Source: a plasmid. Taken from it: a DNA stretch of 64,000 nt. Below the pieces are notes generated by a model. That model saw only the letters and a list, made by a program, of their open reading frames with translations, was not told the DNA's origin and ran no database searches. This document shows, piece after piece, positions 5,644 through 49,288 of this stretch. Position 1 is the first letter of the stretch; every line of letters begins with the position of its first letter. The stretch lies in assembly GCF_058153355.1 (NCBI RefSeq), contig NZ_JBLWLY010000002.1, one strand, 5' to 3'. The translations under genes and the position numbers were made by a program.

Positions 5644-5646
5644 TCA

Positions 5647-6939
5647 ATGAGCTATACAAAATTGCTCACTCAATTATCTTTTCCTAATAAAATCTCGGGG
5701 CCAATCTTGGAAACAAGTCTTAGCGATGTTTCGATTGGTGAGATTTGTAACATTCAGGCTGGAATTGAAAGTAATGAAATTGTTGCAAGAGCTCAGGTTG
5801 TAGGATTTCATGATGAAAAAACGATATTAAGCTTGATTGGAAATTCTCGTGGGCTTTCACGGCAAACGTTGATTAAGCCCACTGCCCAGTTTCTTCATAC
5901 GCAAGTCGGCCGAGGATTATTGGGAGCAGTAGTCAATCCTTTAGGGGAGGTTACTGATAAGTTTGCTGTTACGGATAACAGTGAAATCCTTTATCGACCT
6001 GTAGATAATGCTCCTCCGCTATATAGTGAAAGGGCTGCAATTGAGAAGCCTTTTTTAACAGGTGTTAAGGTTATTGATTCTTTACTCACGTGTGGTGAAG
6101 GACAGCGAATGGGGATTTTTGCGTCAGCTGGTTGTGGCAAAACTTTTCTCATGAATATGCTCATTGAACATAGTGGTGCTGATATATATGTTATTGGGTT
6201 AATTGGTGAGCGAGGTCGAGAGGTTACAGAAACGGTTGATTATTTGAAAAACTCTGAGAAAAAAAGCAGGTGTGTTTTAGTATATGCAACTTCGGATTAC
6301 TCTTCGGTTGATCGTTGTAATGCTGCATATATAGCCACTGCTATAGCCGAATTTTTTAGGACTGAAGGACATAAAGTAGCGCTTTTTATTGATTCATTAA
6401 CAAGGTATGCCAGAGCATTACGTGATGTGGCCTTAGCCGCTGGAGAATCACCTGCTAGAAGAGGCTATCCGGTTTCGGTTTTTGATAGCTTACCCAGACT
6501 TCTTGAAAGGCCAGGAAAGTTAAAGGCAGGTGGCTCTATTACTGCATTTTATACTGTTCTTTTGGAGGATGATGATTTTGCTGATCCATTGGCTGAAGAG
6601 GTAAGATCCATTTTAGATGGACATATATATTTGAGCAGAAATCTAGCCCAAAAAGGACAATTTCCTGCAATTGATTCCTTAAAAAGTATAAGCAGAGTAT
6701 TTACACAGGTTGTTGATGAAAAACATCGTATTATGGCCGCTGCATTTCGGGAGCTACTTTCTGAAATAGAAGAGCTAAGGACAATTATTGACTTTGGTGA
6801 ATACAAACCGGGGGAGAATGCCTCTCAGGATAAAATCTACAACAAAATATCTGTTGTTGAGAGTTTTCTGAAGCAAGATTATCGACTCGGTTTTACTTAT
6901 GAGCAGACAATGGAGCTTATTGGTGAAACAATTAGATAA
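5647..6939 (+). CDS. spa47: T3SS ATPase (SctN; Spa47/InvC)
   Basis: 430 aa; Walker A GCGKT; F1/FliI-like ATPase core. Confidence 0.92.
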   Translation: MSYTKLLTQLSFPNKISGPILETSLSDVSIGEICNIQAGIESNEIVARAQVVGFHDEKTILSLIGNSRGLSRQTLIKPTAQFLHTQVGRGLLGAVVNPLGEVTDKFAVTDNSEILYRPVDNAPPLYSERAAIEKPFLTGVKVIDSLLTCGEGQRMGIFASAGCGKTFLMNMLIEHSGADIYVIGLIGERGREVTETVDYLKNSEKKSRCVLVYATSDYSSVDRCNAAYIATAIAEFFRTEGHKVALFIDSLTRYARALRDVALAAGESPARRGYPVSVFDSLPRLLERPGKLKAGGSITAFYTVLLEDDDFADPLAEEVRSILDGHIYLSRNLAQKGQFPAIDSLKSISRVFTQVVDEKHRIMAAAFRELLSEIEELRTIIDFGEYKPGENASQDKIYNKISVVESFLKQDYRLGFTYEQTMELIGETIR

Positions 6940-7019
6940 GGTTTTAAAAATCAAAGATAAATATCAACGGTCTGTTAAACTAATTGAAGCACACATATTA
7001 ACACTAAAAAAAAAACTCT

Positions 7020-7370
7020 TTGTATCGAGATGTGGAGGCATTAGATAAAAGGATTATATACTTCCTGCAGCTGGAGAATGACTTGGAACCTGTAGGCGCT
7101 CAGAGTGTTAGTCAGCTTTTCAATACAAGACGTAAGATCGCTATAGTAAAAAAGCATATTATCCAATATCAGTCTGAACGAATTCTTCTAAATGGAAGAA
7201 TTGAAGAAATTCAAAAAGATATTGATGAGGCAAATGCTTCTAAAAGAAAACTGCTTCATAAAGAGAGTAAAATATGTAAACGGATTGGCTTGATTAAAAG
7301 AAATAACTTTGCCAAACAGTTGATACTTGATGAGTTATCACAAGAGGATATGAAGTATGGCATTAGATAA
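7020..7370 (+). CDS. spa13: T3SS stalk protein (SctO; Spa13/InvI)
   Basis: About 116 aa, coiled-coil-like, immediately downstream of the ATPase gene; start codon uncertain. Confidence 0.7.
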
Positions 7371-8235
7371 TATAAACTTAAATTTTAGTAGTGACAAACA
7401 GATAGAAAAATGTGAGAAACTATCTTCAATAGATAATATTGATAGTCTCGTTTTGAAGAAGAAGAGGAAGGTTGAAATTCCTGAGTACTCTTTAATTGCA
7501 TCTAACTATTTTACTATTGATAAGCACTTTGAACATAAGCATGATAAAGGAGAAATTTATAGTGGCATTAAAAATGCGTTCGAACTTAGAAACGAACGAG
7601 CGACATATTCTGATATTCCAGAATCAATGGTCATTAAAGAAAATATTTTGATACCAGAGCAAGATATCAAAGCAAGGGAAAAAATAAATATCGGCGATAT
7701 GAGGGGGATCTTTTCATATAATGAGAGTGGAAATGCAGACAAGAACTTCGAAAGAAGTCATACTTCTTCTGCAAACCCTGATAATCTGCTAGAACCTGAT
7801 AATAGAAATGGTCAAATTGGTTTAAAAAATCATAGCTTATCTATTGATAAGAATATTGCTGACATCATTTCTTTGCTAAATGGAAGTGTTCCTAAGTCAT
7901 TTGATCTGCCTGTAATGAAAAAAAATACTTCAGACATAACCCCATCCATGTCATTGCAAGAAAAATCAATAGTTGAAAATGATAAAAATGTTTATCAAAA
8001 AAATAGTGAAATGACTTACCACTTTAAACAGTGGGGGGCTGGACATTCTGTTAGTATTTCAGTGGAGTCTGGTTCTTTTGTTCTAAAACCGTCAGATCAA
8101 TTTGTAGGAAATAAACTTGACTTAATTTTGAAACAAGATGCTGAGGGTAATTACAGATTTGATAGCAGTCAACATAATAAGGGGAATAAAAATAATAGTA
8201 CAGGATATAATGAACAGAGTGAAGAAGAATGCTAA
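7357..8235 (+). CDS. spa32: T3SS needle-length regulator (SctP; Spa32/InvJ)
   Basis: 292 aa, poorly conserved, in the SctP position; overlaps neighbouring genes as in the spa operon. Confidence 0.7.
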
Positions 8236-9110
8236 GACTTAAACATTTTGACGCTAACGAAAAATTACAGATTTTATATGCCAAGCAACTCTGCGAGCGT
8301 TTTGCGATTCAGACATTCAAAAATAAATTTACAGGCAGTGAAAGTTTAGTCACTCTTACTTCCGTGTGTGGTGATTGGGTGATTCGTATTGATACATTAT
8401 CTTTTTTGAAAAAAAAATACGAGGTATTTTCAGGATTTTCTACACAAGAATCTTTACTGCATTTATCAAAATGTGTCTTTATAGAGTCGTCATCTGTATT
8501 TTCGATTCCAGAACTGTCGGATAAGATTACTTTCCGGATCACGAATGAAATCCAGTTTGCAACTACTGGGAGTCATTTATGCTGTTTTTCCTCTTCTTTA
8601 GGTATTATTTATCTTGACAAGATGCCTGTATTACGTAATCAAGTTTCTCTTGATTTATTGCATCATCTTTTAGAGTTTTGCTTAGGTTCATCTAATGTGA
8701 GGCTGGCTACTTTAAAAAGAATTCGCACTGGTGATATAATCATAGTTCAGAAACTTTATAATTTATTATTGTGTAATCAAGTTATTATTGGGGATTATAT
8801 TGTGAATGATAATAATGAGGCAAAAATTAATCTGTCAGAAAGTAATGGTGAGTCAGATCACACAGAAGTTTCTTTGGCATTATTCAATTATGATGATATC
8901 AATGTAAAAGTGGACTTTATCCTTTTAGAAAAAAAGATGACAATCAATGAACTAAAAATGTATGTAGAAAACGAATTATTCAAGTTTCCCGATGACATAG
9001 TTAAACATGTAAATATTAAAGTAAATGGTTCTTTGGTTGGGCATGGGGAACTTGTTTCTATTGAGGATGGTTATGGTATCGAGATTAGTTCTTGGATGGT
9101 AAAGGAGTAA
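8229..9110 (+). CDS. spa33: T3SS cytoplasmic sorting platform protein (SctQ; Spa33/SpaO)
   Basis: 293 aa; SpoA-like C-terminal region; position between SctP and SctR. Confidence 0.8.
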
Positions 9111-9114
9111 TCTC

Positions 9115-9765
9115 ATGCTGAGTGATATGTCCCTCATCGCTACACTTTCTTTTTTTACGCTATTACCATTTTTAGTTGCTGCTGGTACTTGTTATATAAA
9201 GTTTTCTATTGTTTTTGTAATGGTACGAAATGCACTTGGTTTGCAGCAGGTTCCATCAAATATGACTCTCAATGGTATTGCATTGATTATGGCTTTGTTC
9301 GTGATGAAACCCATTATTGAAGCTGGTTATGAAAATTATCTAAATGGCCCGCAAAAATTTGATACAATATCAGATATTGTCCGTTTTTCTGATTCTGGCT
9401 TGATTGAATACAAGCAATACTTGAAAAAGCATACAGATCTTGAGTTGGCACGTTTTTTCCAAAGGTCTGAAGAAGAAAATGCTGATTTAAAGAGTGCAGA
9501 GAATAATGATTATTCATTGTTTTCCCTCTTGCCTGCATATGCGCTAAGTGAAATTAAAGATGCGTTCAAAATAGGTTTTTATTTATATTTGCCATTTATT
9601 GTTGTTGATCTTGTTATTTCAAGCATTTTACTTGCACTTGGTATGATGATGATGAGTCCAATCACAATATCAGTACCAATAAAACTTGTATTATTTGTTG
9701 CGCTTGATGGGTGGGGGATCCTGTCTAAGGCCTTGATTGAACAATATATCAATGTTCCTGCTTAG
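9115..9765 (+). CDS. spa24: T3SS export apparatus protein (SctR; Spa24/SpaP)
   Basis: 216 aa polytopic membrane protein; FliP family size and position. Confidence 0.9.
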
Positions 9766-9779
9766 ATGATGGAGGTAAT

Positions 9780-10810: not shown

Positions 10811-10816
10811 AATATT

Positions 10817-11845
10817 ATGGCAAATAAAACAGAAAAGCCGACACCTAAAAAACTAAAGGATGCCGCAAAAAAAGGACAGTCATTTAAATTTAAGGATTTA
10901 ACGACTGTTGTTATTATTCTGGTAGGGACATTTACTATAATATCATTCTTTTCCTTAAGTGATGTAATGCTCTTATACAGATATGTAATAATTAATGACT
11001 TCGAAATTAATGAGGGTAAATACTTTTTTGCAGTGGTTATTGTCTTTTTTAAGATAATTGGCTTCCCACTTTTTTTCTGTGTTCTTTCGGCTGTGTTGCC
11101 AACATTGGTTCAAACAAAGTTTGTTCTTGCGACTAAAGCTATCAAGATTGATTTTTCAGTATTAAACCCTGTTAAAGGGTTAAAAAAAATATTTAGTATA
11201 AAGACAATAAAAGAATTTTTCAAAAGCATTCTGCTTCTTATTATTCTAGCATTAACAACCTATTTCTTTTGGATTAATGACCGAAAAATAATTTTTTCTC
11301 AGGTGTTTTCTAGTGTTGATGGCTTATATCTTATTTGGGGGGGGCTGTTTAAGGATATAATATTATTTTTCTTGGCATTTTCTATTTTTGTTATTATTCT
11401 TGACTTTGTGATTGAGTTCATTTTATACATGAAAGATATGATGATGGATAAACAGGAGATAAAAAGAGAATATATAGAGCAAGAGGGACACTTTGAGACA
11501 AAGTCGAGAAGGCGTGAGTTGCATATCGAGATTCTTTCAGAGCAGACTAAATCTGATATACGTAATTCAAAATTAGTGGTAATGAACCCGACTCATATTG
11601 CAATTGGTATTTATTTTAATCCAGAAATAGCGCCTGCACCTTTTATTTCTCTCATTGAAACTAACCAGTGTGCCTTGGCTGTCAGAAAATATGCAAATGA
11701 AGTTGGTATACCAACTGTGCGTGATGTGAAATTAGCTAGAAAACTATATAAAACACATACAAAATATAGTTTTGTTGATTTTGAACACTTGGATGAAGTC
11801 CTACGTCTTATTGTTTGGCTTGAGCAGGTTGAAAACACTCATTAA
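10817..11845 (+). CDS. spa40: T3SS autoprotease/substrate-specificity switch (SctU; Spa40/SpaS)
   Basis: 342 aa; N-terminal membrane domain; NPTH autocleavage motif (..VVMNPTHIAIG..). Confidence 0.9.
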   Translation: MANKTEKPTPKKLKDAAKKGQSFKFKDLTTVVIILVGTFTIISFFSLSDVMLLYRYVIINDFEINEGKYFFAVVIVFFKIIGFPLFFCVLSAVLPTLVQTKFVLATKAIKIDFSVLNPVKGLKKIFSIKTIKEFFKSILLLIILALTTYFFWINDRKIIFSQVFSSVDGLYLIWGGLFKDIILFFLAFSIFVIILDFVIEFILYMKDMMMDKQEIKREYIEQEGHFETKSRRRELHIEILSEQTKSDIRNSKLVVMNPTHIAIGIYFNPEIAPAPFISLIETNQCALAVRKYANEVGIPTVRDVKLARKLYKTHTKYSFVDFEHLDEVLRLIVWLEQVENTH

Positions 11846-13147: not shown

Positions 13148-13248
13148 TGTTAGCGCCAGTGATATAAGACGGTAATTCACCATTTGGATTGTCCGCTCCA
13201 CCCAACATGTTGTTTCCTTAAGGTTCTCACACCAGAAAGGACATCAAC

Positions 13249-15218
<1,970 letters not shown>

Positions 15219-15278
15219 CGAAAGTATCTTAGCGGGCATGAAAATGGCAAATAACGGTTAAAAATCGTGGCGTTGACA

Positions 15279-15560
15279 CTGCTGACGAGGGCTTATCCCT
15301 GTCCGCCGCTGACACCACGTATACCAGCCGCTGTGGGCCACCCGGAGCACGCGGCACATTGCCTTGATGCTGAACCCAGCCTGATGTTTTTCAATAAAGA
15401 CATACTTCATTTCAGGCGCTTCGTAAAGTATGTCGCGGCCTTTTGGAGGATAGCCAGTTCCTCTGCCTGCTCCGCCAGTTGCCGCTTCAGGCGGGCATTT
15501 TCAGCGGCCAGTTCACTTTCACGCTCAGACGAGGTCATCTGTTGCTGCAGTTTGCTGCGC
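15279..15560 (-). pseudogene. IS3 fragment (orfA 3' end plus orfB 5' start), bounded by the IS21 and IS66 insertions
   Basis: Minus-strand translation ..[50 protein letters not shown] followed by [25 protein letters not shown].. Confidence 0.7.
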
Positions 15561-15679
15561 GTAAGCGTCTTATCAGGACCGTCTGGCAAATTCCCGATGC
15601 TTTGGACAAAGTATCCACCACTAAATTAATAGTGGGTGATAAAAATGTCAGATATACAAAAAAATGCCTCTCCGGGAAG

Positions 15680-17105
15680 TAATGCCAGTCAGTTAAGCAA
15701 CTGACTGGCTCTTTTTCGGGGCTGTGGGGTATTTCCAGGGCCTCTCCTTTACCACTCTCGGGAAGGCCCTTTCCCTTCTTGTCGGTAATTTCACAAGTTG
15801 TCCCATACTTGCAAGATCGCGCATCAGCTCCGGTATACGTCCCGGTGAAGCGCCCTGCAATGTCATCAGCATTCTCATCACCATTCCGCATGATTCTGAG
15901 AAACTCAGTTGATTCGGCCAGTAACCTTTCAGATGTTCCGCCATTTTAATCATCTGATATCTCACCAGATTATAAGCCAGTAAGACACCCCACAGCTCTT
16001 GCTCCACAAGCTCCGGCTTTTTACTTCTCAGCGTCAGCCTGCTCAGTTGCATCGTCTGTTTTATCTCCCTGTATCCCAGTTCGATTTCCCAGCGATGACT
16101 GTACAGATCCGCCATTTCTCCTCCGGGGAAGCGCATGGCGTCCGTCATCGACGTCAGCAGATGGCAGACTTTTCCTTTGCGCGTCACGGTCAGCAGGCGG
16201 GCTGTCACTTCATTTCCCAGTCCCGGCCACTTTTTTCGTGCCTGCGGGCTGGTTTTCAGCTTCACCAGATGATCGCCTTTACCCAGTTTTCTGATCTCTT
16301 CATATTGCGCTCCCTTTCTGAGAGGTATCATCCAGTGGCGGTGTTCTCCCGCCAGGCTCCAGGCATTTAACAGTCCCAGTGAGTAATAACCTTTATCCAT
16401 TAACGTCAGAGTGTTATCGCCGGTTTGTTCTATAAGTTGCTCAGCAAGCTCATTTTCGCTGTTCTTCATCGTGCCGAAGGCTGCAGCCGTCAGCAGATGG
16501 CTGGTCAGTTCCATCTGGCAGACCATTTTGACCTGCGGGTAGAGCGCCGGGTTCCCGGCATGTGTCTGGCGGGGGAAGGCTGCATCGTTCTCTGGTGTAT
16601 CCGGTGTGCGCCAGAACACACCATCGATGGCCAGCAGGGTCAGGCCGCACCAGTGCGGATGCGGCGTGGCGTTATGCCAGAGCTGCGCTGTTTTCGTGAA
16701 CACGCGGCGGACAGCCTCACTTCCCAGGCGCTGGCGGGCCTGAATAACGGCACTGGGGGCAACGAAGGGGCGATTGCCCGGCAGCATGATGTCCAGGCGA
16801 TTCACAATCTGGTGAAGAGGTTCTTTACGCTCAAGCGCCATGCCAACAATACACCAGACCATCATTTCGAGGGGAAGACGGCGCTTGCGTAGCGTTACAG
16901 TACCTGATTCGGCAAGGCAACGAGAGATGAGTTCGGGGTCGAGGTAATCCCCCAGAGAAGTCAGTGGGTTACGCAGAGAATCGTAACGGGATACCAGATC
17001 AAGAGCCTGTCCAATGTGCATAAAAAAATCCGGAAACAAGTGAGCGTTTCCGGATTCTTACACAGCCACTGGATCGGTCAACTGATCCTTAACTGATCGG
17101 CATTA
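15680..17105 (-). mobile_element. IS4, 1426 bp, flanked by a 12-bp direct duplication CTCTCCGGGAAG (15668..15679 and 17106..17117)
   Basis: Terminal inverted repeats TAATGCC(A/G)..CAGTTAAG at both ends; perfect 12-bp TSD; length equals canonical IS4. Confidence 0.9.
15693..17039 (-). CDS. IS4 transposase
   Basis: 448-aa ORF (from the first ATG) matching the IS4 transposase as I recall it. Confidence 0.9.
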
Positions 17106-17498
17106 CTCTCCGGGAAGGCCTAAAGGGTGCCTGAATTATCCTCCTGAATTCAAACAACGACTCATAGAAGCATCATTCCAGCCAGGTGTTTCAATTTCCA
17201 GACTGGCCCTGGACAATGGTATTAATGCCAATCTGTTGTTCAAATGGCGTCAGAAATGGCGGCAGGGGAAGATAAAATTGCCATCATCAGAATCAGGCAG
17301 AGAATCTCAGTTAATTCCTGTCACTATTGATGCCCAACTCCCAACTGCTCCGGCTAATGAGCCACTGACCGCAAGACCGTCAGTAACACCGGAAATACAC
17401 AGCATCTCCTGTGAGATTACGTTCAGAAACGGCACCCTTCGGTTGAACGGGGCAGTGAATGAAAATCTGCTGTCCTTGCTTATACAGGAGCTGAGACG

Positions 17499-17846
17499 GT
17501 GATATCTCTCCCTGCAGGTTCGCGTATCTGGCTGGTTGCAGGTATCACCGATATGCGAAATGGCTTTAACGGCCTGGCCTCAAAAGTTCAGAACGTCCTG
17601 AAGGATGACCCGTTCTCCGGACACCTGTTCATCTTCCGCGGACGCCGGGGTGACCAGATAAAAGTGCTGTGGGCTGACAGCGACGGACTGTGCCTCTTCA
17701 CCAGACGCCTGGAACGGGGCCGCTTCGTCTGGCCGGTCACCCGTGACGGCAAGGTGCACCTTACTCCGGCCCAGTTATCCATGCTTCTTGAGGGCATCGA
17801 CTGGAAACACCCGAAACGAACGGAACGCGCTGGCATCCGCATATAA
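17499..17846 (+). CDS. tnpB: IS66-family TnpB (orf2)
   Basis: 115 aa; near-identical to the TnpB of the intact copy at 22228..22575. Confidence 0.85.
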   Translation: MISLPAGSRIWLVAGITDMRNGFNGLASKVQNVLKDDPFSGHLFIFRGRRGDQIKVLWADSDGLCLFTRRLERGRFVWPVTRDGKVHLTPAQLSMLLEGIDWKHPKRTERAGIRI

Positions 17847-17865
17847 CCCGTTGTAAAGTGAGGAT

Positions 17866-19254
17866 ATGGACACCTCACTTGCTCATGAGAATGCCCGCCT
17901 GCGGGCACTGTTGCAGACGCAACAGGACACCATCCGCCAGATGGCGAAATACAACCGCCTGCTCTCACAGCGGGTGGCGGCTTATGCTTCCGAAATCAAC
18001 CGGCTGAAGGCGCTGGTTGCAAAACTGCAGCGCATGCAGTTCGGTAAAAGCTCAGAAAAACTTCGTGCAAAAACCGAACGGCAGATACAGGAAGCACAGG
18101 AGCGAATCAGCGCTCTTCAGGAAGAAATGGCGGAAACGCTGGGTGAGCAATATGACCCGGTACTGCCATCTCCCCTGCGCCAGTCTTCAGCCCGTAAACC
18201 GTTACCTGCCTCACTTCCCCGTGAAACCCGGGTCATCCGTCCGGAAGAGGAATGCTGCCCGGCCTGTGGTGGCGAACTCAGTTCTCTGGGATGTGATGTG
18301 TCAGAGCAACTGGAGCTTATCAGCAGCGCCTTTAAGGTTATCGAAACACAACGTCCGAAACTGGCCTGTTGCCGGTGCGACCATATCGTGCAGGCTCCGG
18401 TGCCTTCAAAACCCATTGCACGCAGTTATGCCGGAGCGGGGCTTCTGGCCCATGTTGTCGCTGGAAAATATGCAGACCATCTGCCGTTATACCGCCAGTC
18501 AGAAATATACCGTCGTCAGGGCGTGGAGCTGAGCCGTGCCACACTGGGGCGCTGGACAGGTGCTGTTGCTGAACTGCTGGAACCGCTGTATGACATCCTG
18601 CGCCAGTATGTGCTGATGCCCGGTAAAGTCCATGCCGATGATATCCCCGTTCCGGTCCAGGAGCCGGGCAGCGGTAAAACAAGGACTGCCCGGCTGTGGG
18701 TCTACGTTCGTGATGACCGTAACGCCGGTTCGGAAATGCCTCCGGCGGTCTGGTTCGCGTACAGCCCGGACCGGAAAGGTATCCATCCACAGAATCATCT
18801 GGCCGGTTACAGCGGAGTGCTTCAGGCCGATGCTTACGGTGGTTACCGGGCGTTGTACGAATCCGGCAGAATAACGGAAGCCGCATGTATGGCTCATGCC
18901 CGGAGAAAAATCCACGATGTGCATGCAAGAGTGCCCACCGACATCACCACGGAAGCCCTGCAGCGTATCGGTGAACTGTATGCCATCGAGGCAGAGGTCC
19001 GGGGCTGTTCAGCAGAACAGCGTCTGGCGGCAAGAAAAGCCAGAGCCGCGCCACTGATGCAGTCACTGTATGACTGGATACAGCAACAGATGAAAACACT
19101 GTCGCGTCACTCGGACACGGCAAAAGCGTTCGCATACCTGCTGAAACAGTGGGATGCACTGAACGTGTACTGCAGTAATGGCTGGGTGGAAATCGACAAC
19201 AACATCGCAGAGAACGCCTTACGGGGAGTGGCCGTAGGCCGGAAAAACTGGCTC
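17866..19254 (+). pseudogene. tnpC: IS66-family transposase TnpC, 5' exon, interrupted after ..GRKNWL by the group II intron
   Basis: Identical to residues 1 to about 463 of the intact 523-aa TnpC at 20637..22208; continuation found at 23557..23738. Confidence 0.8.
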
Positions 19255-19766
19255 TGTGTGTCACGAAGGAGTACTTATGGCAACAATGTGAAAATTGCAG
19301 CATAAGTTATCCATGCTCTGAGGTGGGTGGAGGTGGGCCCTCCGGTCAGGGTTTACAGGAGCACTGACCAAACGACCCGGTGCTGCTTCATTCTAAGGAA
19401 TGAGGTGGTGAGCGACTCGGGAAAAGGCAGAGATCTACTGTCACGTGGGGTTCGGGAAGCTGAACGAAAGTAAACTGTCCGATGAAGCATCGAAATCTTA
19501 GATGATGTCAAAATGGGGCCGTACAGCCGTCCCCTGATAAGCGCAGAAGACACCTGCTTACTGACTGCGCGGCATCCGGTGTGAAGGCAGCAGGATCCCG
19601 GGCCAGACCATCTCAGGGAACGTGAGAACCTGTTTCCGGCACGTATCGGGAAACAGGGGCGGACCCATTCGTAGTAGTGATGAAAGATCTGTAATGGGTC
19701 TGGAGCGAAGGGATGGGGATCACATTCATTGCAGAAGACACAACCCAAAAGGGGATGACGTAACTG

Positions 19767-20606
19767 ATGCAACGAAAATCATTTGAAATACCAAAAGCAC
19801 TGGTCTGGGCATCATATCTGGATGTGCGTCGCAACAAGGGAGCCCCCGGATGCGACGGGCAGACTTTGAAAATGTTCGACCAGCAACGTGATGGCAATCT
19901 ATACAAGATCTGGAACCGGCTATGTTCGGGAACATGGTTTCCGCCACCAGTGCTGGAAAAACGGATCCCGAAGTCGAATGGCAAGGAACGCATTCTGGGG
20001 ATCCCAACAGTATCCGATCGAATTGCTCAGGGAGCGATAAAACTTTTCATGGAAGAAAAGCTTGACCCGATTTTCCATGCTGATTCATATGGTTACCGAC
20101 CAGGCAAATCAGCTCATGACGCTCTGAAACAATGTGCCATCCGGTGCTGGCGTTATAGCTGGATACTGGAAGTGGACATCAGTGCGTTTTTCGACCATGT
20201 GAGACATGATCTGGTGCTCAAAGCTCTGGAACACCACGGGATGCCTAAATGGGTCATCCTGTACTGTCGACGCTGGATGGAAGCGCCAATGCAGAGTTGT
20301 GAAAATGGAGAATTAATAACCCGAACACGAGGCACTCCGCAGGGCGGGGTCATTAGTCCACTACTTGCTAACTTGTTCCTTCACTATGCATTTGATTTGT
20401 GGATGGAAAGAGAATATCGGGGGGTACCGTTTGAGAGGTACGCTGACGATATTGTAGTACATTGTTCACGAATGAGTGATGCAACAAGGCTGAAGAACAG
20501 GTTATCGGAGCGCTTCTCGGAAGTCGGGCTGGTCCTGAATGCAGGGAAAACGAATATCGCCTACATTGACACGTTTAAAAGGAGAAACGTCGCAACGAGT
20601 TTCACC
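19767..20606 (+). pseudogene. Group II intron reverse transcriptase/maturase, interrupted by IS66 copy 2; C-terminal part resumes at 23083..23476
   Basis: RT motifs (..PQGGVISPLLANLFL.., ..YADD..) identical to the intact 410-aa copies at 36768..38000 and 60598..61830 up to ..VATSFT. Confidence 0.8.
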
Positions 20607-20636
20607 GTAAGCGGCTCGCCAGAACCGTATTGATAT

Positions 20637-22208
20637 TTACTGAGAGCTCAGATCAACTTTCCAGGGCAACAGATCGCGTACCCGGTTTGCCGGCCAGTCC
20701 TGGATATGTTCAATGACGTAACGCAGCCACTTTTCTGGCTCCACATTGTTCAGACGGCATGTGCCGATCAGCGAGTACAACACCGCAGCATGTTCACCAC
20801 CGCTGTCAGAACCCGCGAAGAGCCAGTTTTTCCGGCCTACGGCCACTCCCCGTAAGGCGTTCTCTGCGATGTTGTTGTCGATTTCCACCCAGCCATTACT
20901 GCAGTACACGTTCAGTGCATCCCACTGTTTCAGCAGGTATGCGAACGCTTTTGCCGTGTCCGAGTGACGCGACAGTGTTTTCATCTGTTGCTGTATCCAG
21001 TCATACAGTGACTGCATCAGTGGCGCGGCTCTGGCTTTTCTTGCCGCCAGACGCTGTTCTGCTGAACAGCCCCGGACCTCTGCCTCGATGGCATACAGTT
21101 CACCGATACGCTGCAGGGCTTCCGTGGTGATGTCGGTGGGCACTCTTGCATGCACATCGTGGATTTTTCTCCGGGCATGAGCCATACATGCGGCTTCCGT
21201 TATTCTGCCGGATTCGTACAACGCCCGGTAACCACCGTAAGCATCGGCCTGAAGCACTCCGCTGTAACCGGCCAGATGATTCTGTGGATGGATACCTTTC
21301 CGGTCCGGGCTGTACGCGAACCAGACCGCCGGAGGCATTTCCGAACCGGCGTTACGGTCATCACGAACGTAGACCCACAGCCGGGCAGTCCTTGTTTTAC
21401 CGCTGCCCGGCTCCTGGACCGGAACGGGGATATCATCGGCATGGACTTTACCGGGCATCAGCACATACTGGCGCAGGATGTCATACAGCGGTTCCAGCAG
21501 TTCAGCAACAGCACCTGTCCAGCGCCCCAGTGTGGCACGGCTCAGCTCCACGCCCTGACGACGGTATATTTCTGACTGGCGGTATAACGGCAGATGGTCT
21601 GCATATTTTCCAGCGACAACATGGGCCAGAAGCCCCGCTCCGGCATAACTGCGTGCAATGGGTTTTGAAGGCACCGGAGCCTGCACGATATGGTCGCACC
21701 GGCAACAGGCCAGTTTCGGACGTTGTGTTTCGATAACCTTAAAGGCGCTGCTGATAAGCTCCAGTTGCTCTGACACATCACATCCCAGAGAACTGAGTTC
21801 GCCACCACAGGCCGGGCAGCATTCCTCTTCCGGACGGATGACCCGGGTTTCACGGGGAAGTGAGGCAGGTAACGGTTTACGGGCTGAAGACTGGCGCAGG
21901 GGAGATGGCAGTACCGGGTCATATTGCTCACCCAGCGTTTCCGCCATTTCTTCCTGAAGAGCGCTGATTCGCTCCTGTGCTTCCTGTATCTGCCGTTCGG
22001 TTTTTGCACGAAGTTTTTCTGAGCTTTTACCGAACTGCATGCGCTGCAGTTTTGCAACCAGCGCCTTCAGCCGGTTGATTTCGGAAGCATAAGCCGCCAC
22101 CCGCTGTGAGAGCAGGCGGTTGTATTTCGCCATCTGGCGGATGGTGTCCTGTTGCGTCTGCAACAGTGCCCGCAGGCGGGCATTCTCATGAGCAAGTGAG
22201 GTGTCCAT
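20637..22208 (-). CDS. tnpC: IS66-family transposase TnpC (intact, 523 aa)
   Basis: Full-length ORF; zinc-finger-like CxxC pairs and DDE-type C-terminal region typical of IS66 TnpC. Confidence 0.9.
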
Positions 22209-22227
22209 ATCCTCACTTTACAACGGG

Positions 22228-22575
22228 TTATATGCGGATGCCAGCGCGTTCCGTTCGTTTCGGGTGTTTCCAGTCGATGCCCTCAAGAAGCATGGATAAC
22301 TGGGCCGGAGTAAGGTGCACCTTGCCGTCACGGGTGACCGGCCAGACGAAGCGGCCCCGTTCCAGGCGTCTGGTGAAGAGGCACAGTCCGTCGCTGTCAG
22401 CCCACAGCACTTTTATCTGGTCACCCCGGCGTCCGCGGAAGATGAACAGGTGTCCGGAGAACGGGTCATCCTTCAGGACGTTCTGAACTTTTGAGGCCAG
22501 GCCGTTAAAGCCATTTCGCATATCGGTGATACCTGCAACCAGCCAGATACGCGAACCTGCAGGGAGAGATATCAC
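22228..22575 (-). CDS. tnpB: IS66-family TnpB
   Basis: 115 aa; conserved IS66 orf2 arrangement. Confidence 0.88.
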   Translation of the reverse strand: MISLPAGSRIWLVAGITDMRNGFNGLASKVQNVLKDDPFSGHLFIFRGRRGDQIKVLWADSDGLCLFTRRLERGRFVWPVTRDGKVHLTPAQLSMLLEGIDWKHPKRTERAGIRI

Positions 22576-23000
22576 CGTCTCAGCTCCTGTATAAGCAAGG
22601 ACAGCAGATTTTCATTCACTGCCCCGTTCAACCGAAGGGTGCCGTTTCTGAACGTAATCTCACAGGAGATGCTGTGTATTTCCGGTGTTACTGACGGTCT
22701 TGCGGTCAGTGGCTCATTAGCCGGAGCAGTTGGGAGTTGGGCATCAATAGTGACAGGAATTAACTGAGATTCTCTGCCTGATTCTGATGATGGCAATTTT
22801 ATCTTCCCCTGCCGCCATTTCTGACGCCATTTGAACAACAGATTGGCATTAATACCATTGTCCAGGGCCAGTCTGGAAATTGAAACACCTGGCTGGAATG
22901 ATGCTTCTATGAGTCGTTGTTTGAATTCAGGAGGATAATTCAGGCACCCTTTAGGCCTTCCCGGAGAGGCATTTTTTTGTATATCTGACATTTTTATCAC
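22572..23000 (-). CDS. tnpA: IS66-family TnpA (orf1)
   Basis: 142 aa; HTH-containing N-terminus; overlaps tnpB start. Confidence 0.85.
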   Translation of the reverse strand: MIKMSDIQKNASPGRPKGCLNYPPEFKQRLIEASFQPGVSISRLALDNGINANLLFKWRQKWRQGKIKLPSSESGRESQLIPVTIDAQLPTAPANEPLTARPSVTPEIHSISCEITFRNGTLRLNGAVNENLLSLLIQELRR

Positions 23001-23768
23001 CCACTATTAATTTAGTGGTGGATACTTTGTCCAAAGCATCGGGAATTTGCCAGACGGTCCTGATAAGACGCTTACGTTTCACCTTTCTCGGATATGACTT
23101 CAAAGTGCGTACGCTGAAGAATTTCAAAGGCGAACTGTACCGAAAATGCATGCCGGGTGCGTCAAATGCAGCAATGCGCAAAATAACAGAAACAATCAAG
23201 AAGTGGCGTATACATCGCTCAACAGCTGAGAGTTTGCTGGATTTTGCGAGGCGCTACAATGCGATAGTGAGAGGCTGGATCGAGTACTACGGAAAGTTCT
23301 GGTCCAGAAATTTCAACTATCGACTGTGGAGTGCAATGCAGTCACGTCTGCTCAAGTGGATGCAGTCTAAATACAGACTTTCGAACCGGAAGGCTCAGCG
23401 AAAGCTGACGCTGGTAAGGAAGGAGTATCCGAAGCTATTTGTTCACTGGTATTTACTACGTGCATCAAATGAGTGATCAAGAGCCGTATGACGCGAGAGT
23501 GTCACGTACGGTTCCGTGAGCAGCCGGGGAGTGAAATTCTCTCCGGCTGACTCGACTCGCAGGTTCCGACAGCGGTGGCGAACATGCGGCGGTGTTGTAC
23601 TCGCTGATCGGCACATGCCGTCTGAACAATGTGGGGCCAGAAAAATGGCTGCGTTACGTCATTGAGCATATCCAGGACTGGCCGGCAAACCGGGTACGCG
23701 ATCTGTTGCCCTGGAAAGTTGATCTGAGCTCTCAGTAAATATCAATACGGTTCTGGCGAGCCGCTTAC

Positions 23769-24109
23769 GCACTAACTGTAGTCTGAGTAGATAAAGACGG
23801 AGTAAGAGCAGCCACCGGTTCTTTCGGCTCATCCGGCGTTATCTCCACAGGTAATAATTCAACGCCAGTGTCAGAAGAGGTTGTTACCGGAAGACGCCGC
23901 GATATGCGCCCTTCGTTCTGCCAGAGCCTGAGCCATTTGAACAGCAGATTGGCGTTAATGCCATTTTCAAGAGCAAGTTTTGAGATGGATACCCCGGATT
24001 CACAGGAGGCAGAAACGAGCTGCTGTTTAAATTCGGGAGGATCATTAGGGCAGCCTTTTCGCCTGCCGGGAGTCACATTTTTCTGCATATCTGACACTTT
24101 GGTTCCCAC
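23769..24109 (-). pseudogene. IS66-family TnpA (type B) fragment, truncated by the right end of IS66 copy 1
   Basis: Translation ..[69 protein letters not shown].. parallels the tnpA at 57452..57871. Confidence 0.6.
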
Positions 24110-24298
24110 TACTTATTTGGTGGACACCACTTTGTCTAATTCGTCAGATTCTGACCAGACGGTTCAGGCTGTACGCTTCCCCATGTGATTTGCCTCGCCA
24201 CTTCACCGGGCTCAGGACCCCGTAGGATCTTCACCGAAAAAAATGCATCACCAGTTGCTTTATTATTTGTTTTAGGTAGACCTGTTACTAATTTATAC

Positions 24299-24556
24299 CT
24301 ACTCTGACCAGGTCTGGATAAGAAAGGCACACCTGCACATTTCTACTTGGAAATGTTTTCTTTTACCATTTTTCTCAAAAATTTCAACATCCAATATTCC
24401 TCGTACAGAACTACTCAAGTCCTGAATAGAAAAAGTTCCAGCTGGTACAGTAGGGTCATATATTACTCGACCTTGTTGAGATACAACAACACGTGCATTA
24501 GTTTCTGCAATACCAGTAATCTGAGGCGCATAACCACGAATATTTGGCGGTAGCAT
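24299..24556 (-). pseudogene. Fimbrial usher (FimD/PapC family) internal fragment
   Basis: 85-aa ORF ..RGYAPQITGIAETNARVVVSQQGRVIYDPTVPAGTFSIQDLSSSVRGILDVEIFEKNGKRKHFQV.. resembles the conserved usher middle region; no complete gene present. Confidence 0.45.
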
Positions 24557-24665
24557 TCGTTCATCGCATTTCTAATGCAATTCCTGTGTAACGCCAAGCA
24601 ACAGCGCATTCTGGCGCATGATCCGGTAAACACGTTTGGCATTGATCGCAGGCATACCATCATGT

Positions 24666-24698
24666 GCACAAAAACCCACCGAGCTTTTACACGGTGGG
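24666..24698 (-). terminator. Putative rho-independent terminator downstream of icsA
   Basis: Minus-strand hairpin CCCACCGTGTAAAAGCTCGGTGGG followed by TTTTTGTG, about 45 nt after the icsA stop. Confidence 0.5.
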
Positions 24699-24742
24699 TC
24701 CCAGAGAAATGCAGGACATCAACACGCCCTGCATTTTTATTA

Positions 24743-36687: not shown

Positions 36688-38511
36688 GTCGAGTCAGCCG
36701 GAGAGAATTTCACTCCCCGGCTGCTCACGGAACCGTACGTGACACTCTCGCGTCATACGGCTCTTGATCACTCATTTGATGCACGTAGTAAATACCAGTG
36801 AACAAATAGCTTCGGATACTCCTTCCTTACCAGCGTCAGCTTTCGCTGAGCCTTCCGGTTCGAAAGTCTGTATTTAGACTGCATCCACTTGAGCAGACGT
36901 GACTGCATTGCACTCCACAGTCGATAGTTGAAATTTCTGGACCAGAACTTTCCGTAGTACTCGATCCAGCCTCTCACTATCGCATTGTAGCGCCTCGCAA
37001 AATCCAGCAAACTCTCAGCTGTTGAGCGATGTATACGCCACTTCTTGATTGTTTCTGTTATTTTGCGCATTGCTGCATTTGACGCACCCGGCATGCATTT
37101 TCGGTACAGTTCGCCTTTGAAATTCTTCAGCGTACGCACTTTGAAGTCATATCCGAGAAAGGTGAAACTCGTTGCGACGTTTCTCCTTTTAAACGTGTCA
37201 ATGTAGGCGATATTCGTTTTCCCTGCATTCAGGACCAGCCCGACTTCCGAGAAGCGCTCCGATAACCTGTTCTTCAGCCTTGTTGCATCACTCATTCGTG
37301 AACAATGTACTACAATATCGTCAGCGTACCTCTCAAACGGTACCCCCCGATATTCTCTTTCCATCCACAAATCAAATGCATAGTGAAGGAACAAGTTAGC
37401 AAGTAGTGGACTAATGACCCCGCCCTGCGGAGTGCCTCGTGTTCGGGTTATTAATTCTCCATTTTCACAACTCTGCATTGGCGCTTCCATCCAGCGTCGA
37501 CAGTACAGGATGACCCATTTAGGCATCCCGTGGTGTTCCAGAGCTTTGAGCACCAGATCATGTCTCACATGGTCGAAAAACGCACTGATGTCCACTTCCA
37601 GTATCCAGCTATAACGCCAGCACCGGATGGCACATTGTTTCAGAGCGTCATGAGCTGATTTGCCTGGTCGGTAACCATATGAATCAGCATGGAAAATCGG
37701 GTCAAGCTTTTCTTCCATGAAAAGTTTTATCGCTCCCTGAGCAATTCGATCGGATACTGTTGGGATCCCCAGAATGCGTTCCTTGCCATTCGACTTCGGG
37801 ATCCGTTTTTCCAGCACTGGTGGCGGAAACCATGTTCCCGAACATAGCCGGTTCCAGATCTTGTATAGATTGCCATCACGTTGCTGGTCGAACATTTTCA
37901 AAGTCTGCCCGTCGCATCCGGGGGCTCCCTTGTTGCGACGCACATCCAGATATGATGCCCAGACCAGTGCTTTTGGTATTTCAAATGATTTTCGTTGCAT
38001 CAGTTACGTCATCCCCTTTTGGGTTGTGTCTTCTGCAATGAATGTGATCCCCATCCCTTCGCTCCAGACCCATTACAGATCTTTCATCACTACTACGAAT
38101 GGGTCCGCCCCTGTTTCCCGATACGTGCCGGAAACAGGTTCTCACGTTCCCTGAGATGGTCTGGCCCGGGATCCTGCTGCCTTCACACCGGATGCCGCGC
38201 AGTCAGTAAGCAGGTGTCTTCTGCGCTTATCAGGGGACGGCTGTACGGCCCCATTTTGACATCATCTAAGATTTCGATGCTTCATCGGACAGTTTACTTT
38301 CGTTCAGCTTCCCGAACCCCACGTGACAGTAGATCTCTGCCTTTTCCCGAGTCGCTCACCACCTCATTCCTTAGAATGAAGCAGCACCGGGTCGTTTGGT
38401 CAGTGCTCCTGTAAACCCTGACCGGAGGGCCCACCTCCACCCACCTCAGAGCATGGATAACTTATGCTGCAATTTTCACATTGTTGCCATAAGTACTCCT
38501 TCGTGACACAC
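36688..38511 (-). mobile_element. Group II intron copy 2 (1824 bp) inserted in IS66 tnpC
   Basis: Boundaries GTGTG...CTCGAC on the minus strand; flanking exon sequence identical to the other copies. Confidence 0.85.
36768..38000 (-). CDS. Group II intron-encoded reverse transcriptase/maturase (intact, 410 aa)
   Basis: RT domains including PQGGVISPLLANLFL and YADD; no obvious endonuclease domain at this size. Confidence 0.9.
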   Translation of the reverse strand: MQRKSFEIPKALVWASYLDVRRNKGAPGCDGQTLKMFDQQRDGNLYKIWNRLCSGTWFPPPVLEKRIPKSNGKERILGIPTVSDRIAQGAIKLFMEEKLDPIFHADSYGYRPGKSAHDALKQCAIRCWRYSWILEVDISAFFDHVRHDLVLKALEHHGMPKWVILYCRRWMEAPMQSCENGELITRTRGTPQGGVISPLLANLFLHYAFDLWMEREYRGVPFERYADDIVVHCSRMSDATRLKNRLSERFSEVGLVLNAGKTNIAYIDTFKRRNVATSFTFLGYDFKVRTLKNFKGELYRKCMPGASNAAMRKITETIKKWRIHRSTAESLLDFARRYNAIVRGWIEYYGKFWSRNFNYRLWSAMQSRLLKWMQSKYRLSNRKAQRKLTLVRKEYPKLFVHWYLLRASNE

Positions 38512-39943
38512 AGAGCCAGTTTTTCCGGCCTACGGCCACTCCCCGTAAGGCGTTCTCTGCGATGTTGTTGTCGATTTCCACCCAGCCATTACTGCAGTAC
38601 ACGTTCAGTGCATCCCACTGTTTCAGCAGGTATGCGAACGCTTTTGCCGTGTCCGAGTGACGCGACAGTGTTTTCATCTGTTGCTGTATCCAGTCATACA
38701 GTGACTGCATCAGTGGCGCGGCTCTGGCTTTTCTTGCCGCCAGACGCTGTTCTGCTGAACAGCCCCGGACCTCTGCCTCGATGGCATACAGTTCACCGAT
38801 ACGCTGCAGGGCTTCCGTGGTGATGTCGGTGGGCACTCTTGCATGCACATCGTGGATTTTTCTCCGGGCATGAGCCATACATGCGGCTTCCGTTATTCTG
38901 CCGGATTCGTACAACGCCCGGTAACCACCGTAAGCATCGGCCTGAAGCACTCCGCTGTAACCGGCCAGATGATTCTGTGGATGGATACCTTTCCGGTCCG
39001 GGCTGTACGCGAACCAGACCGCCGGAGGCATTTCCGAACCGGCATTCCTGTCATCCCGGACATACGTCCAGATATATCCTGTTTTCGCCTTCTTCCTGCT
39101 CGGTGCCAGCACTTTTACTGGTGTGTCATCAGTGTGAACCTTGCGGGTGTTCATCACATAACGGTACAGGGCATCATTCAGCGGAGTCATTAACTGGCAG
39201 CACGCGTCAACCCAGTTGGAGAGTAACGTACGGCTCAGTTCGACCCCCTGACGGGCAAAGATTTCACTCTGACGATACAGTGGCAGGTGTTCGCAGTATT
39301 TTCCCGTTAACACGCGGGCAAGTAACCCCGGGCCCGCGATACCACGCTCTATCGGACGGGACGGTGCCGGAGCTTCAACGATGCAGTCACATTTTGTACA
39401 GGCTTTTTTTACCCGTTCTGTGCGGATCACTTTCAGAGCGCTGCTCACCAGTTCCAGTTGTTCTGCGCTGACTTCCCCCAGATAATCCAGCTCACCGCCA
39501 CACTCCGGGCAACAGCTTTCTTCTGGCTCCAGGCGATTTATTTCGCGGGGCAGATGCTCCGGTAACGGGCGACGATGACGAGACTGTCGTAACTGGCGGG
39601 GAACCCGGAACTCCACCTTGCAGGAGTTTGCACTGACAGTTGTCTGAGTAGATAGAGACGGAGTAAGAGCCGCCACCGGTTCTTTCTGCTCATCCGGCGT
39701 TATCTCCACAGGTAATAATTCAACGCCAGCGTCAGAAGGGGTTGTTACCGGAAGACGCCGTGATATACGCCCTTCGTTTTGCCAGAGTCTGAGCCATTTG
39801 AAAATAACATTATCATTAACGCCATTTTCTCGTGCAATCTGGGCCACACAAGCTCCGGGTTGTGATGCCAGTTCAACCATACGAAGTTTGAATTCATTCG
39901 AATGCTTTTTACGAGGTTCTTTTCGCCAGTCCTGTAATTCCAT
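38512..39943 (-). pseudogene. IS66-family tnpA-tnpC fusion left by an internal deletion that removed tnpB and the tnpC 5' end; 3' end interrupted by the intron
   Basis: ORF begins as TnpA ([30 protein letters not shown]..) and continues directly into TnpC (..[37 protein letters not shown]..). Confidence 0.7.
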
Positions 39944-40028
39944 ACTCAGGTGTCCGTCTGTGTCAGATGGGCGTCTAAGTTACCAATTCTTGTCTAATGG
40001 CTACATACGGCAGTTGGTTTACGCTTAC

Positions 40029-40311
40029 CAACTACACCTTTCAGTTCGGTAAAATCCGACAGGCCCCGCAGACCGGGCTGATGCCGCTGGCGGAACATGA
40101 CCTCCTGCTCTGCACCATACTGTAGCTTCCATTCGCGAACCCGCCGTTGCATTGTTCTTCGAAGGCTGTTGGGGTACTGACCGGGATATTTATCCTGTAG
40201 CATCTCCAGCAGAGTTGTTGGTGTTAGAGCAGGCCTCTCTTTCAACAGAGGAACAAGCATGCTGTCCCACACAGCTTCAGTAATAATGCCGGTATCAGTT
40301 TTTATCATCAC
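40029..40311 (-). pseudogene. Transposase-like N-terminal fragment of unassigned family, cut by the IS66 copy 3 end
   Basis: ORF MMIKTDTGIITEAVWDSMLVPLLKERPALTPTTLLEMLQDKYPGQYPNSLRRTMQRRVREWK.. runs into the IS66 terminus; family not determinable by eye. Confidence 0.4.
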
Positions 40312-40701
40312 TCTGTTTGCTGTTTAACCAGACTGGTGTGATTACTGATGCAGTGAAGACCTTCCCGCATCCTGACTCACACAGCGATCGACCCTTTGTG
40401 TCCTGCCCTGGACCTGTCGGTTGCCGGAAGCGCCTTCATGCGAGGTGTCTCCTCACCGATGCGCGTGACTCAAGAAGGGCCTGACGGCTTGTCTCGTTAC
40501 TGTCCTGTCCGGGTTATCTGTCTGGAGATTCAACTCTGTTTCCTCACAGGAGAATGAGATGAACGCATCCCCCAACATTAAATCCGGAGCACAGTGATGA
40601 ATAAAGGGGGAAATCAGAGAGGTGTGGAGCCTCGCAGATTTCCGGCATCATTGTGCCCAATACGGGATGCATAAAGCTCCCTCAGACTGGAGACTCCACA
40701 A

Positions 40702-41721
40702 ATGAAATATACACCGGTTGGCGTTGATATCGCAAAACATCTGATTCAGGTTCACTTCATTGATGAGAACACAGGTGAAGTGGTGGATAAGCAACTTCGC
40801 GGCAGAGATTTTCTTGAATATTTCAGCAACCGGGAACCCTGCCTGATTGGTATGGAGGCCTGTGGAGGCTCTCAGCACTGGGCACGGGAGCTGACAAAGC
40901 TGGGGCATAAAGTCCGCTTGTTACAGGCCCGCTTCGTTAAGGCATTCGTCATGGGAAACAAGAACGACGTGATGGATGCCCGGGCTATCTGGATGGCGGT
41001 TCAGCAGCCCGGTAAAGAAATTGCCGTCAAAACAGAAGAACAGCAGTCGGTACTGGTTCTGCATCGTACCCGCATGCAACTGGTGAAGTTCCGGACCGCA
41101 CAAATTAACGCCCTACACGGGACGTTACTGGAGTTTGGTGAAACCATCCACAAAGGTCGGGCAGCGATGGAGCGGGAGTTCCCAGAAGCACTGGAACGAA
41201 TGAAAGAGAGACTGCCACCGTATCTCATCACGGTACTGGAAAACCAGTATAAGCGGTTGAATGAGCTGGACTCCCTGATAGAAGACATCGAAAAACAGCT
41301 TGCCAGCGTGGCGAAACAGAATGAGACCTGTAAGCGGTTGCTGGATATTTCTGGCGTTGGGCCACTTATTGCGACGGCAGCGGTGGCCACCATGGGGGAA
41401 GCATCAGCGTTTAAATCAGGGCGAGAGTTCGCGGCTTATGTTGGTCTGGTGCCCAAACAGACTGGCTCAGGAGGGAAAATCCGCCTGCTGGGGATAAGCA
41501 AACGTGGTGATACATATCTGCGAACCCTGTTTATTCATGGCGCAAGGGCGGCAGCATTACTGACCAAAGAACCTGGTCCGTGGATAACCGAACTGAAAAA
41601 ACGTCGTCCAGCCAGTGTGGCTATCGTCGCCATGGCAAACAAGCTGGCACGAACAGTATGGGCGATAGCTGCCCATGACCGTAAGTATGACAGGAACCAT
41701 GTCAGTATCAGACCATATTAA
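40702..41721 (+). CDS. IS110-family transposase (339 aa)
   Basis: N-terminal ..VGVDIAK.. motif and C-terminal ..LVPKQTGSGGKIRLLGISKRGDTYLRTLFIHGARAA.. typical of the IS110 family. Confidence 0.8.
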   Translation: MKYTPVGVDIAKHLIQVHFIDENTGEVVDKQLRGRDFLEYFSNREPCLIGMEACGGSQHWARELTKLGHKVRLLQARFVKAFVMGNKNDVMDARAIWMAVQQPGKEIAVKTEEQQSVLVLHRTRMQLVKFRTAQINALHGTLLEFGETIHKGRAAMEREFPEALERMKERLPPYLITVLENQYKRLNELDSLIEDIEKQLASVAKQNETCKRLLDISGVGPLIATAAVATMGEASAFKSGREFAAYVGLVPKQTGSGGKIRLLGISKRGDTYLRTLFIHGARAAALLTKEPGPWITELKKRRPASVAIVAMANKLARTVWAIAAHDRKYDRNHVSIRPY

Positions 41722-46713: not shown

Positions 46714-46978
46714 ACATGGGGGGGTGCCCCTATTAAGTTGTCAAGCATGTTATGACCCCTGCGGGGTATAAAAAGTCCCGTCGCGCATCATGGCGAACAG
46801 AACGTCGCAGCGTCGTCTCGCCAGGGCGATAAGCGCCTGATTGTGTCGTTTTCCCTGACTCATTTTGCGGGTGTAGTAAGCCCTGGAGAGCGGATCCCTG
46901 AGCGCGGCGAAGGCCGACTGTCAACGCCACGATTTTTAACCGTTATTTGCCATTTTCATGCCCGCTAAGATACTTTCG

Positions 46979-48948
<1,970 letters not shown>

Positions 48949-49288
48949 GTTGATGTCCTTTCTGGTGTGGGAACCTTAAGGAAACAACATGTTGGGTGGA
49001 GCGGACAATCCAAATGGCGAATTACCGTCTTATATCACTGGCGCTGACACACAGCCAGTATCAGAACCTGCTGACACTGGCAGAACTGTTCCTGGTGGGG
49101 GTGATTACATCAGCGGCCAGGATCAGAAGTGGTGGCCTGCTGCTGCCGGTATTGCTGCATATGGAAGCAACCACGCTGGGTTTACTGTTTGGTTGAAAGT
49201 TATATTTTTATTAAACATTGAGCGTTAAAGCCTGGTGTGTTTTTTTAGTGGATGTTATATTTAAATATAACTTTTATGGAGGTGAAGA

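Follow-up and report, generated by a model that had tools for sequence, protein, structure and literature searches.

A probable dead composite IS66 remnant with a tnpA-tnpC fusion at an icsA-virA inversion junction of a Shigella/EIEC invasion plasmid

An open reading frame of 493 codons that begins like one gene of the IS66 family, tnpA, and ends like another, tnpC, raises the question of whether it represents a new kind of insertion element or the residue of several accidents, and, in the latter case, which accidents these were. The frame lies in a stretch of 64,000 nucleotides of plasmid DNA (NCBI RefSeq assembly GCF_058153355.1, contig NZ_JBLWLY010000002.1), which is called the window throughout and to which all coordinates refer. 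The window comes from an invasion plasmid of Shigella/EIEC (pINV), a virulence plasmid: Rfam identifies RnaG at 28070-28189, adjoining a minus-strand ORF of 1,102 aa that aligns with the annotated icsA of reference plasmids, and virA, the spa operon (370-11845) and the replication-control RNA CopA are also present. About half of the ORFs of pINV belong to insertion sequences, and these drive rearrangements of the plasmid (Pilla et al. 2017, PMC5629016).

The analysis indicates that the locus probably carries a dead composite IS66 remnant, the scar of at least four separate events. It is plasmid scar tissue of an ordinary sort and no new kind of element. Its main value lies in annotation and in the history of the plasmid, while knowledge of IS biology is unchanged.

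Anatomy of the element and the in-frame fusion

The chimeric element, hereafter the chimera, and the duplication beside it consist of the following parts:

36476..40028, minus strand: the whole composite IS66 remnant, 1,729 bp of IS plus a 1,824-bp intron, with IRL at 40028, IRR at 36476 and GTAAGCG/CGCTTAC termini
38462..39943, minus strand: the fused ORF of 493 aa, comprising TnpA residues 1-113, a TnpC segment, 16 intron-encoded codons and the stop
39606..40028, minus strand: IRL and tnpA-derived segment of a pUMNK88_K88-like lineage, ending at the deletion joint 39606|39605
39044..39605, minus strand: tnpC segment, B/C-like (zinc-finger region and first part of the DDE domain), with 96.6% identity to type B 58554..59164
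39035..39043, minus strand: lineage switch interval GCCGGTTCG, coding for a conserved TnpC stretch and bounded by the informative sites 39044 (B/C) and 39034 (A)
38512..39034, minus strand: tnpC 5' exon, type A, exactly matching both the intron-less type A copy (20819..21341) and the partner IS66 described below
36688..38511, minus strand: group II intron with an intact RT/maturase ORF of 410 aa (36768..38000), identified by Rfam, Pfam and the intron-less allele
36476..36687, minus strand: tnpC 3' exon and IRR, type A, with 100% identity to 20607..20818
36468..36475, minus strand: one half of a target-site duplication, TGCTGCGC, beside IRR and matching 15553..15560

The ORF listing places the 493-aa frame at 38462..39943 on the minus strand, in agreement with a first-pass annotation made from the letters of the window. 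The start that had been given there for the feature, 38512, is in reality the boundary between exon and intron, past which the frame runs on for 16 codons, and the whole element extends from 36476 to 40028. The first 113 codons derive from tnpA and pass in frame into tnpC from about codon 103 of TnpC, and the absence of tnpB between them, as annotated, is evident at the joint 39606|39605. About 764 bp are missing at this position, namely the 3' end of tnpA, the whole of tnpB and the 5' end of tnpC; microhomology was looked for at the joint, and none was found. Compared with the canonical element, the fusion has thus cost tnpB and the leucine-zipper region of TnpC.

In the fused ORF, Pfam recognizes HTH_Tnp_1 (in the TnpA part), zf-IS66 and DDE_Tnp_IS66, and the E value of the last (5.7e-104) shows that the match is not due to chance. 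Splicing of the intron would extend the frame to a product of 537 aa with complete DDE and C-terminal domains, which is matched by PF03050 (E = 5.7e-104), PF13005 and PF13817. The leucine-zipper family PF13007 (LZ_Tnp_IS66) stays below the Pfam threshold in the product of the chimera because the region that encodes it is deleted.

Canonical IS66 elements of the ISEc8/IS679 type (tnpA-tnpB-tnpC, about 2.5 kb, 8-bp target duplication) are exemplified in the window by the type A copy at 20607..23075, the end of which had been set one base short, at 23074. With these elements the chimera shares the terminal inverted repeats that begin with GTAAGCG (IRL GTAAGCGTAAACC... at 40028, IRR GTAAGCGGCTCGCC... 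at 36476), the TnpA helix-turn-helix, zf-IS66, DDE_Tnp_IS66 and the C-terminal domains, and its 3' 744 exon bp are identical to the copy just named. In contrast to them, it has no tnpB, its tnpA is truncated and fused to tnpC, the leucine zipper is lost, its two ends come from different lineages and its tnpC is interrupted by an intron. Its flanks are unlike each other (5' TGTAGTTG, 3' TGCTGCGC), and there is no 8-bp direct duplication of its own. The chimera is, therefore, a derivative of IS66 and not an intact member of the family. Transposition of IS679 reportedly requires all three genes. Judged from its gene content, the element is very unlikely to be autonomous, because tnpB is absent and both TnpA and the N-terminal region of TnpC are truncated. 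The fused ORF is most likely a pseudogene, and a pseudogene fusion is the proper annotation for the 493-aa "transposase".

Parental lineages and the switch within tnpC

Sliding-window identity of the chimera was computed against type A (20607..23075), type B (57366..59870) and pUMNK88_K88-type elements, the last represented by the IS66 copies on pUMNK88_K88 and pMTY9757_IncFII (L001/L002). The plots against types A and B had been proposed together with the annotation; the identities resolve three zones, and informative sites narrow the switch to 9 bp (39035..39043). The first zone (40028-39760) is 95-98% identical to the UMNK88-type element and 53-83% to the type B copy of the window, the second (39760-39044) is 93-100% identical to both of these lineages, and in the third (39043..36476, intron left out) every one of the 744 exon bp agrees with type A 20607..21350, as had been stated for the 3' part.

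The start of the fused frame had been described as a type B TnpA. It is indeed TnpA-like, but the assignment to type B is only approximate, and a third lineage is closer. The tnpA-derived segment (39606..40028) is 81% identical to type B of the window, and its identity to the copies on pUMNK88_K88 and pMTY9757_IncFII amounts to 95-98% over the first ~270 bp and to 88-97% nearer the deletion joint; at the protein level, codons 1-113 are 80.5% identical to the TnpA of the window's type B copy and 93.8% to that of pUMNK88_K88. The difference over the first ~270 bp, 53-83% against 95-98%, argues that the 5' parent is a B/C-related third lineage of the pUMNK88_K88 type and not the type B copy of the window.

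The last base specific to B/C is 39044, and the first specific to A is 39034. The longest exact identity between A and B/C anywhere in the ~2.5-kb elements, 21 bp at 39009..39029, lies 5 bp off the switch interval, within a 35-bp stretch of homology common to both lineages, although the apparent joint falls in a 9-bp identity block and not in the neighbouring block of 21 bp. That the switch adjoins the longest shared exact match indicates that recombination was guided by homology rather than occurring at a random joint. Taken together, the sliding-window identities, the joint and the informative sites agree with the annotated combination of an internal deletion and recombination between two IS66 lineages.

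Public data contain many mosaic TnpC proteins of both lineages in which the switch lies elsewhere. The closest case is a TnpC of 533 aa (P0001) encoded by an intact, intron-less mosaic IS66 at three loci (L007-L009, assemblies GCA_028616835.1 and GCA_036923535.1). It is 96% identical to the TnpC part of the chimera, and the element likewise combines a B/C-like 5' part with an A-like 3' part and has its transition in the same conserved TnpC region, the DNA switch being located 20-60 bp upstream of that of the chimera. In P0002 and P0003 the switch lies further downstream, and P0004 has an internal A-type patch. These natural elements lend some weight to the reading that the switch was inherited, i.e. 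that a competent natural mosaic IS66 inserted here and only deletion and inversion happened on this plasmid: intact tnpA-tnpB-tnpC mosaics occur in E. coli, P0001 being encoded in elements that are C-like over the first ~1,800 bp and A-like over the last ~720 bp, and P0002-P0004 illustrate further switch points. Nevertheless, we consider this reading unlikely, since the nearest natural mosaic switches upstream of the chimera and is 2-3% divergent in its A-like part, whereas the chimera is 100% identical to resident copies over 744 exon bp, and the switch is spanned by no record in 72,556 plasmids and 5,426 complete E. coli genomes. By its sequence, the P0001 element is a parallel event and not the parent.

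As a direct parent of the chimera, the P0001 element was tried and rejected, because it is A-like at 39086-39044, a stretch in which the chimera has B/C-like bases. In the full-length TnpC proteins P0001-P0014, a list biased towards query-like mosaics, the A lineage is combined with two or more others at many different switch points.

It had also been asked whether a natural IS66 member with exactly this architecture exists. Intact mosaics with a B/C-like 5' and an A-like 3' part do, but none was found with the exact switch or the tnpA-tnpC fusion, save one draft contig that contains the fusion. A 171-bp probe across the switch found no place at which at least 80% of it was covered in the 5,426 complete E. 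coli genomes or the 72,556 plasmids (PLSDB), the deletion junction had no match in the plasmid collection, and for both junctions between IS and flank only the flank or only the IS was matched there. No complete E. coli genome matched window 38900-40100 at ≥99%, the exact 493-aa product is absent from a collection of 15 billion proteins, and the literature on IS66, group II introns and Shigella, and on IS679, yielded nothing specific. The draft contig (2,218 bp, assembly GCA_015332025.1, L006) encodes a partial protein of 299 aa (P0011) and matches window 41262..39045 with 100% identity. Left flank, IRL and deletion joint are thereby confirmed, and the contig ends at 39045, 2 bp short of the switch interval and at the margin of the multi-copy type A repeat. 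Thus, beyond the window, the deletion junction was found in this one draft assembly only, and the switch junction had no second occurrence in any other sequence searched.

It should be noted that a wrong resolution of repeats longer than 2 kb with 100% identity might generate an apparent chimera or an apparent inversion. The switch is situated exactly at the edge of a multi-copy repeat, the independent contig breaks off 2 bp before it, and neither junction is contained in the collections of complete genomes and plasmids. Such an assembly artefact is, however, hardly to be expected: the window resolves several nested repeats coherently and with exact target duplications, the independent contig carries the IRL flank and the deletion joint, and if the inverted repeats were flipped, the inversion would disappear while the switch would persist.

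The group II intron in tnpC

The intron at 36688..38511 has a length of 1,824 bp and ends that match the GUGYG...AY pattern (GTGTG...GAC). Rfam detects domains D1-D4 (RF01999, 91.9 bits, 38322-38438) and D5/D6 (RF00029, 57.1 bits, 36688-36765), both above the gathering scores, and the RT/maturase ORF of 410 aa (36768..38000) contains RVT_1 (5.3e-41) and GIIM (1.7e-14) according to Pfam. Together with the precise insertion relative to an intron-less allele, the ribozyme domains and the RT/maturase identify it as a group II intron. Its exons join exactly as 20818|20819 in the intron-less type A copy, which is continuous at this point, and its annotation as residing at the type A homing site thus stands. 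Group II introns in other bacterial mobile elements likewise have an RT/maturase ORF and D1-D4 and D5/D6 motifs, and the intron itself shows nothing unusual in comparison; its importance lies in the 1.8 kb of perfect portable homology that it supplies.

One defined site in tnpC carries the intron in three copies of the window. Introns and 5' exons are identical in the three copies, and the 3' exons (36476..36687, 23557..23768 and 61911..62122) differ at 6-7 of 212 positions; the divergence of ~3% concerns two copies and starts 5 bp and 80 bp past the intron, and most of the variants are common to the natural mosaic L007. Both this pattern and the type A tract in the chimera might be traces of exon co-conversion as the intron moved between IS66 alleles in enterobacteria, in that an intron arriving from a pure type A donor would have carried 532 bp of upstream exon along. 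It would be in line with this that the variants in the 3' exons of two copies are shared with the natural mosaic lineage and that the A-type patch of P0004 is centred on the intron site. If true, the intron would spread its preferred tnpC 3' module, creating IS66 mosaics. We regard this as distinctly improbable, because ordinary recombination within identical introns of 1.8 kb, which the inversion described below shows to occur, is expected to leave the same pattern, the B/C-type tnpC has a different sequence at the corresponding intron site, and only two or three cases are available, with a list of top protein hits that favours query-like mosaics.

Two further intron-related features were observed. 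A second, different group II intron match to D1-D4 (RF01999, 116.9 bits) lies at 31481..31599, between virA and the chimera. The third intron-bearing IS66 remnant (59871..62122) consists of a TnpB-like fragment (GDGLCLLTKRLERG...) joined to the last 145 bp of the tnpC 5' exon with a 1-bp indel, followed by the same intron; its IRR is mutated to CGTTTAC and abuts an ISEc22-like tnpC fragment (62144-62840). It is the second internal-deletion derivative in the window.

Inversion of the icsA-virA segment and the proposed order of events

Two further features are involved in the rearrangement of the region:

15553..23768, plus strand: partner inversion-junction element, consisting of the target duplication half TGCTGCGC, a type A IS66 (IRL at 15561), the same intron as in the chimera from 19256, a variant 3' exon and IRR at 23768
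23769..36475, no strand assigned: inverted icsA-virA segment of 12.7 kb, from RnaG/icsA and synteny with L003, L004 and L005

The octamer TGCTGCGC is present both at 15553-15560, directly before the left end of the IS66 at 15561, and at 36468-36475, so that the right flank of the chimera pairs with the end of the other element. In pWR501 and pBS512_211 the site is empty: 15560|36475 is continuous with a single TGCTGCGC, and 15278..15560 is contiguous with 36475..35626. In these two plasmids and in the pINV of EIEC O121, i.e. in three reference pINVs, icsA-virA has the opposite orientation relative to spa to that in the window. A target duplication that is split across two opposed elements, an empty site in relatives and the reversed orientation together show that the 12.7-kb segment 23769..36475 is flipped and that the chimera is one of the inversion junctions, which acquired the 3' end of the type A element. 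The nested type A copy has its own perfect 8-bp duplication, GGTGAAAC, which shows that these elements regularly produce 8-bp duplications here. For the other flanks at IS66 ends (TGTAGTTG, GCACTAAC, TCAGAAAG, CCAATAAG and GGTGACGG), partners were sought within the window and none were found.

The partner carries an IS4-family insertion (15680..17105, 1,426 bp) and the nested intact type A IS66 20607..23075. When the nested IS66 and its duplication are removed, partner and chimera are identical over 2,356 bp (39043..36688), made up of 532 bp of exon and the 1,824-bp intron. The exchange that produced the inversion most likely fell within this tract of perfect identity, although no marker within the 2,356 bp shows where.

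The first-pass annotation had suggested that the chimera may mark the crossover of the inversion. That it is a junction is borne out by the shared TGCTGCGC and the empty site; the switch itself, however, cannot be the reciprocal crossover, because the partner (15561..23768) is pure type A through the position equivalent to the switch and thus lacks the complementary switch. Therefore, the 5' parent already carried the switch, whatever the point of crossover. The possibility that a B/C-like element and the type A IS66 at 15561 recombined at the interval 39035..39043 itself, producing the inversion, accords with the chimera being one of the two junction elements, with all sequence 3' of the switch being type A and with a right flank that has the target duplication of that element. 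It is nevertheless very improbable, as such an exchange would leave an A-to-B/C hybrid at 15561..23768, where the partner is pure type A up to the intron and has an A-like 3' exon, and as 2,356 bp of perfect identity offer recombination a much better substrate than do blocks of 9 bp or 21 bp.

The partner is not fully accounted for by a single exchange. In its 3' exon, 7 of 212 positions depart from type A, and at five of these it agrees with the natural mosaic lineage; its right end abuts a truncated IS66 tnpA and not the IS21-family fragment found at the left end of the chimera. Neither the 3' exon nor the right flank fits a simple exchange, and therefore, further events must have occurred.

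The favoured history, that of a composite remnant scarred by several events, would run as follows. A pUMNK88_K88-like (B/C-related) IS66 residing in an IS21-family transposase fragment would have lost ~764 bp by illegitimate deletion without microhomology, which eliminated tnpB and happened to bring codon 113 of tnpA into frame with the middle of tnpC. Its tnpC would then have recombined with the resident type A lineage at the 35-bp homology island, leaving the element type A from 39043 on, and a group II intron would have occupied the type A site in the 3' region of tnpC. Finally, homologous recombination with the inversely oriented type A IS66 inserted at 15561, 21 kb away, would have inverted icsA-virA, so that each element received the 3' exon and the right-hand flank of the other. 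The anatomy with its two joints, the pairing of the target duplication, the empty site in other pINVs and the inverted segment are all directly visible in the DNA and support this history, while we infer the order of the events and the guidance of the second one by homology. That second step may have taken place either on the spot, if a deletion fused two copies of the same orientation, or prior to the arrival of the element at its site; one simple possibility would be that the switch represents a deletion between directly oriented IS66 copies.

The demonstrable effect of the element is that of a recombination substrate, i.e. of portable homology for rearrangement. As the two IS66 copies share 2.36 kb of perfect identity, the orientation of icsA-virA may be reversible, and the same identity is a trap for assemblers. 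IS66 lineages appear to exchange modules at a specific conserved patch in tnpC, to which the resident intron adds 1.8 kb of portable homology. Recombination between insertion sequences that reshuffles virulence regions is shared with the rearrangements described for pINV (Pilla et al. 2017, PMC5629016), but that work concerns mainly deletions and integration between other IS copies and does not mention IS66, whereas here a pair of IS66 elements flips icsA-virA and the homology includes a group II intron.

Several other IS-related features of the region were noted. The IS4-family insertion at 15680..17105 encodes a transposase of 448 aa, has the 12-bp direct repeat CTCTCCGGGAAG on either side and interrupts the tnpA of the IS66 at 15561. 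The type A copy 20607..23075 is nested within an intron (19256..23556) that is itself inside another type A IS66, and it is 100% identical to the 5' 2,150 bp of its host and to the 3' exon of the chimera. The truncated minus-strand IS66 tnpA at 23769..24182 is a hybrid, the 5' half of which is ISEc22-like (97% to pBS512_211) and the 3' half 99.5% identical to type B 57584..57765. The type B IS66 at 57366..59870 has no target duplication (CCAATAAG versus GGTGACGG), and a frameshift divides its tnpC into two ORFs, of 424 and 93 aa. Another potential substrate for inversion is formed by two IS21-family elements (istA/istB) in opposite orientation at 13148..15278 and 46919..49049, which are 99.8% identical over 2,131 bp and bracket ~32 kb. 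In S. boydii pBS512_211 (L005), inverted ISEc22 copies (6846..9157 and 28233..30741 of that plasmid) bracket ushA-icsA-virA, and thus IS66-family pairs around this segment are not unique to the window.
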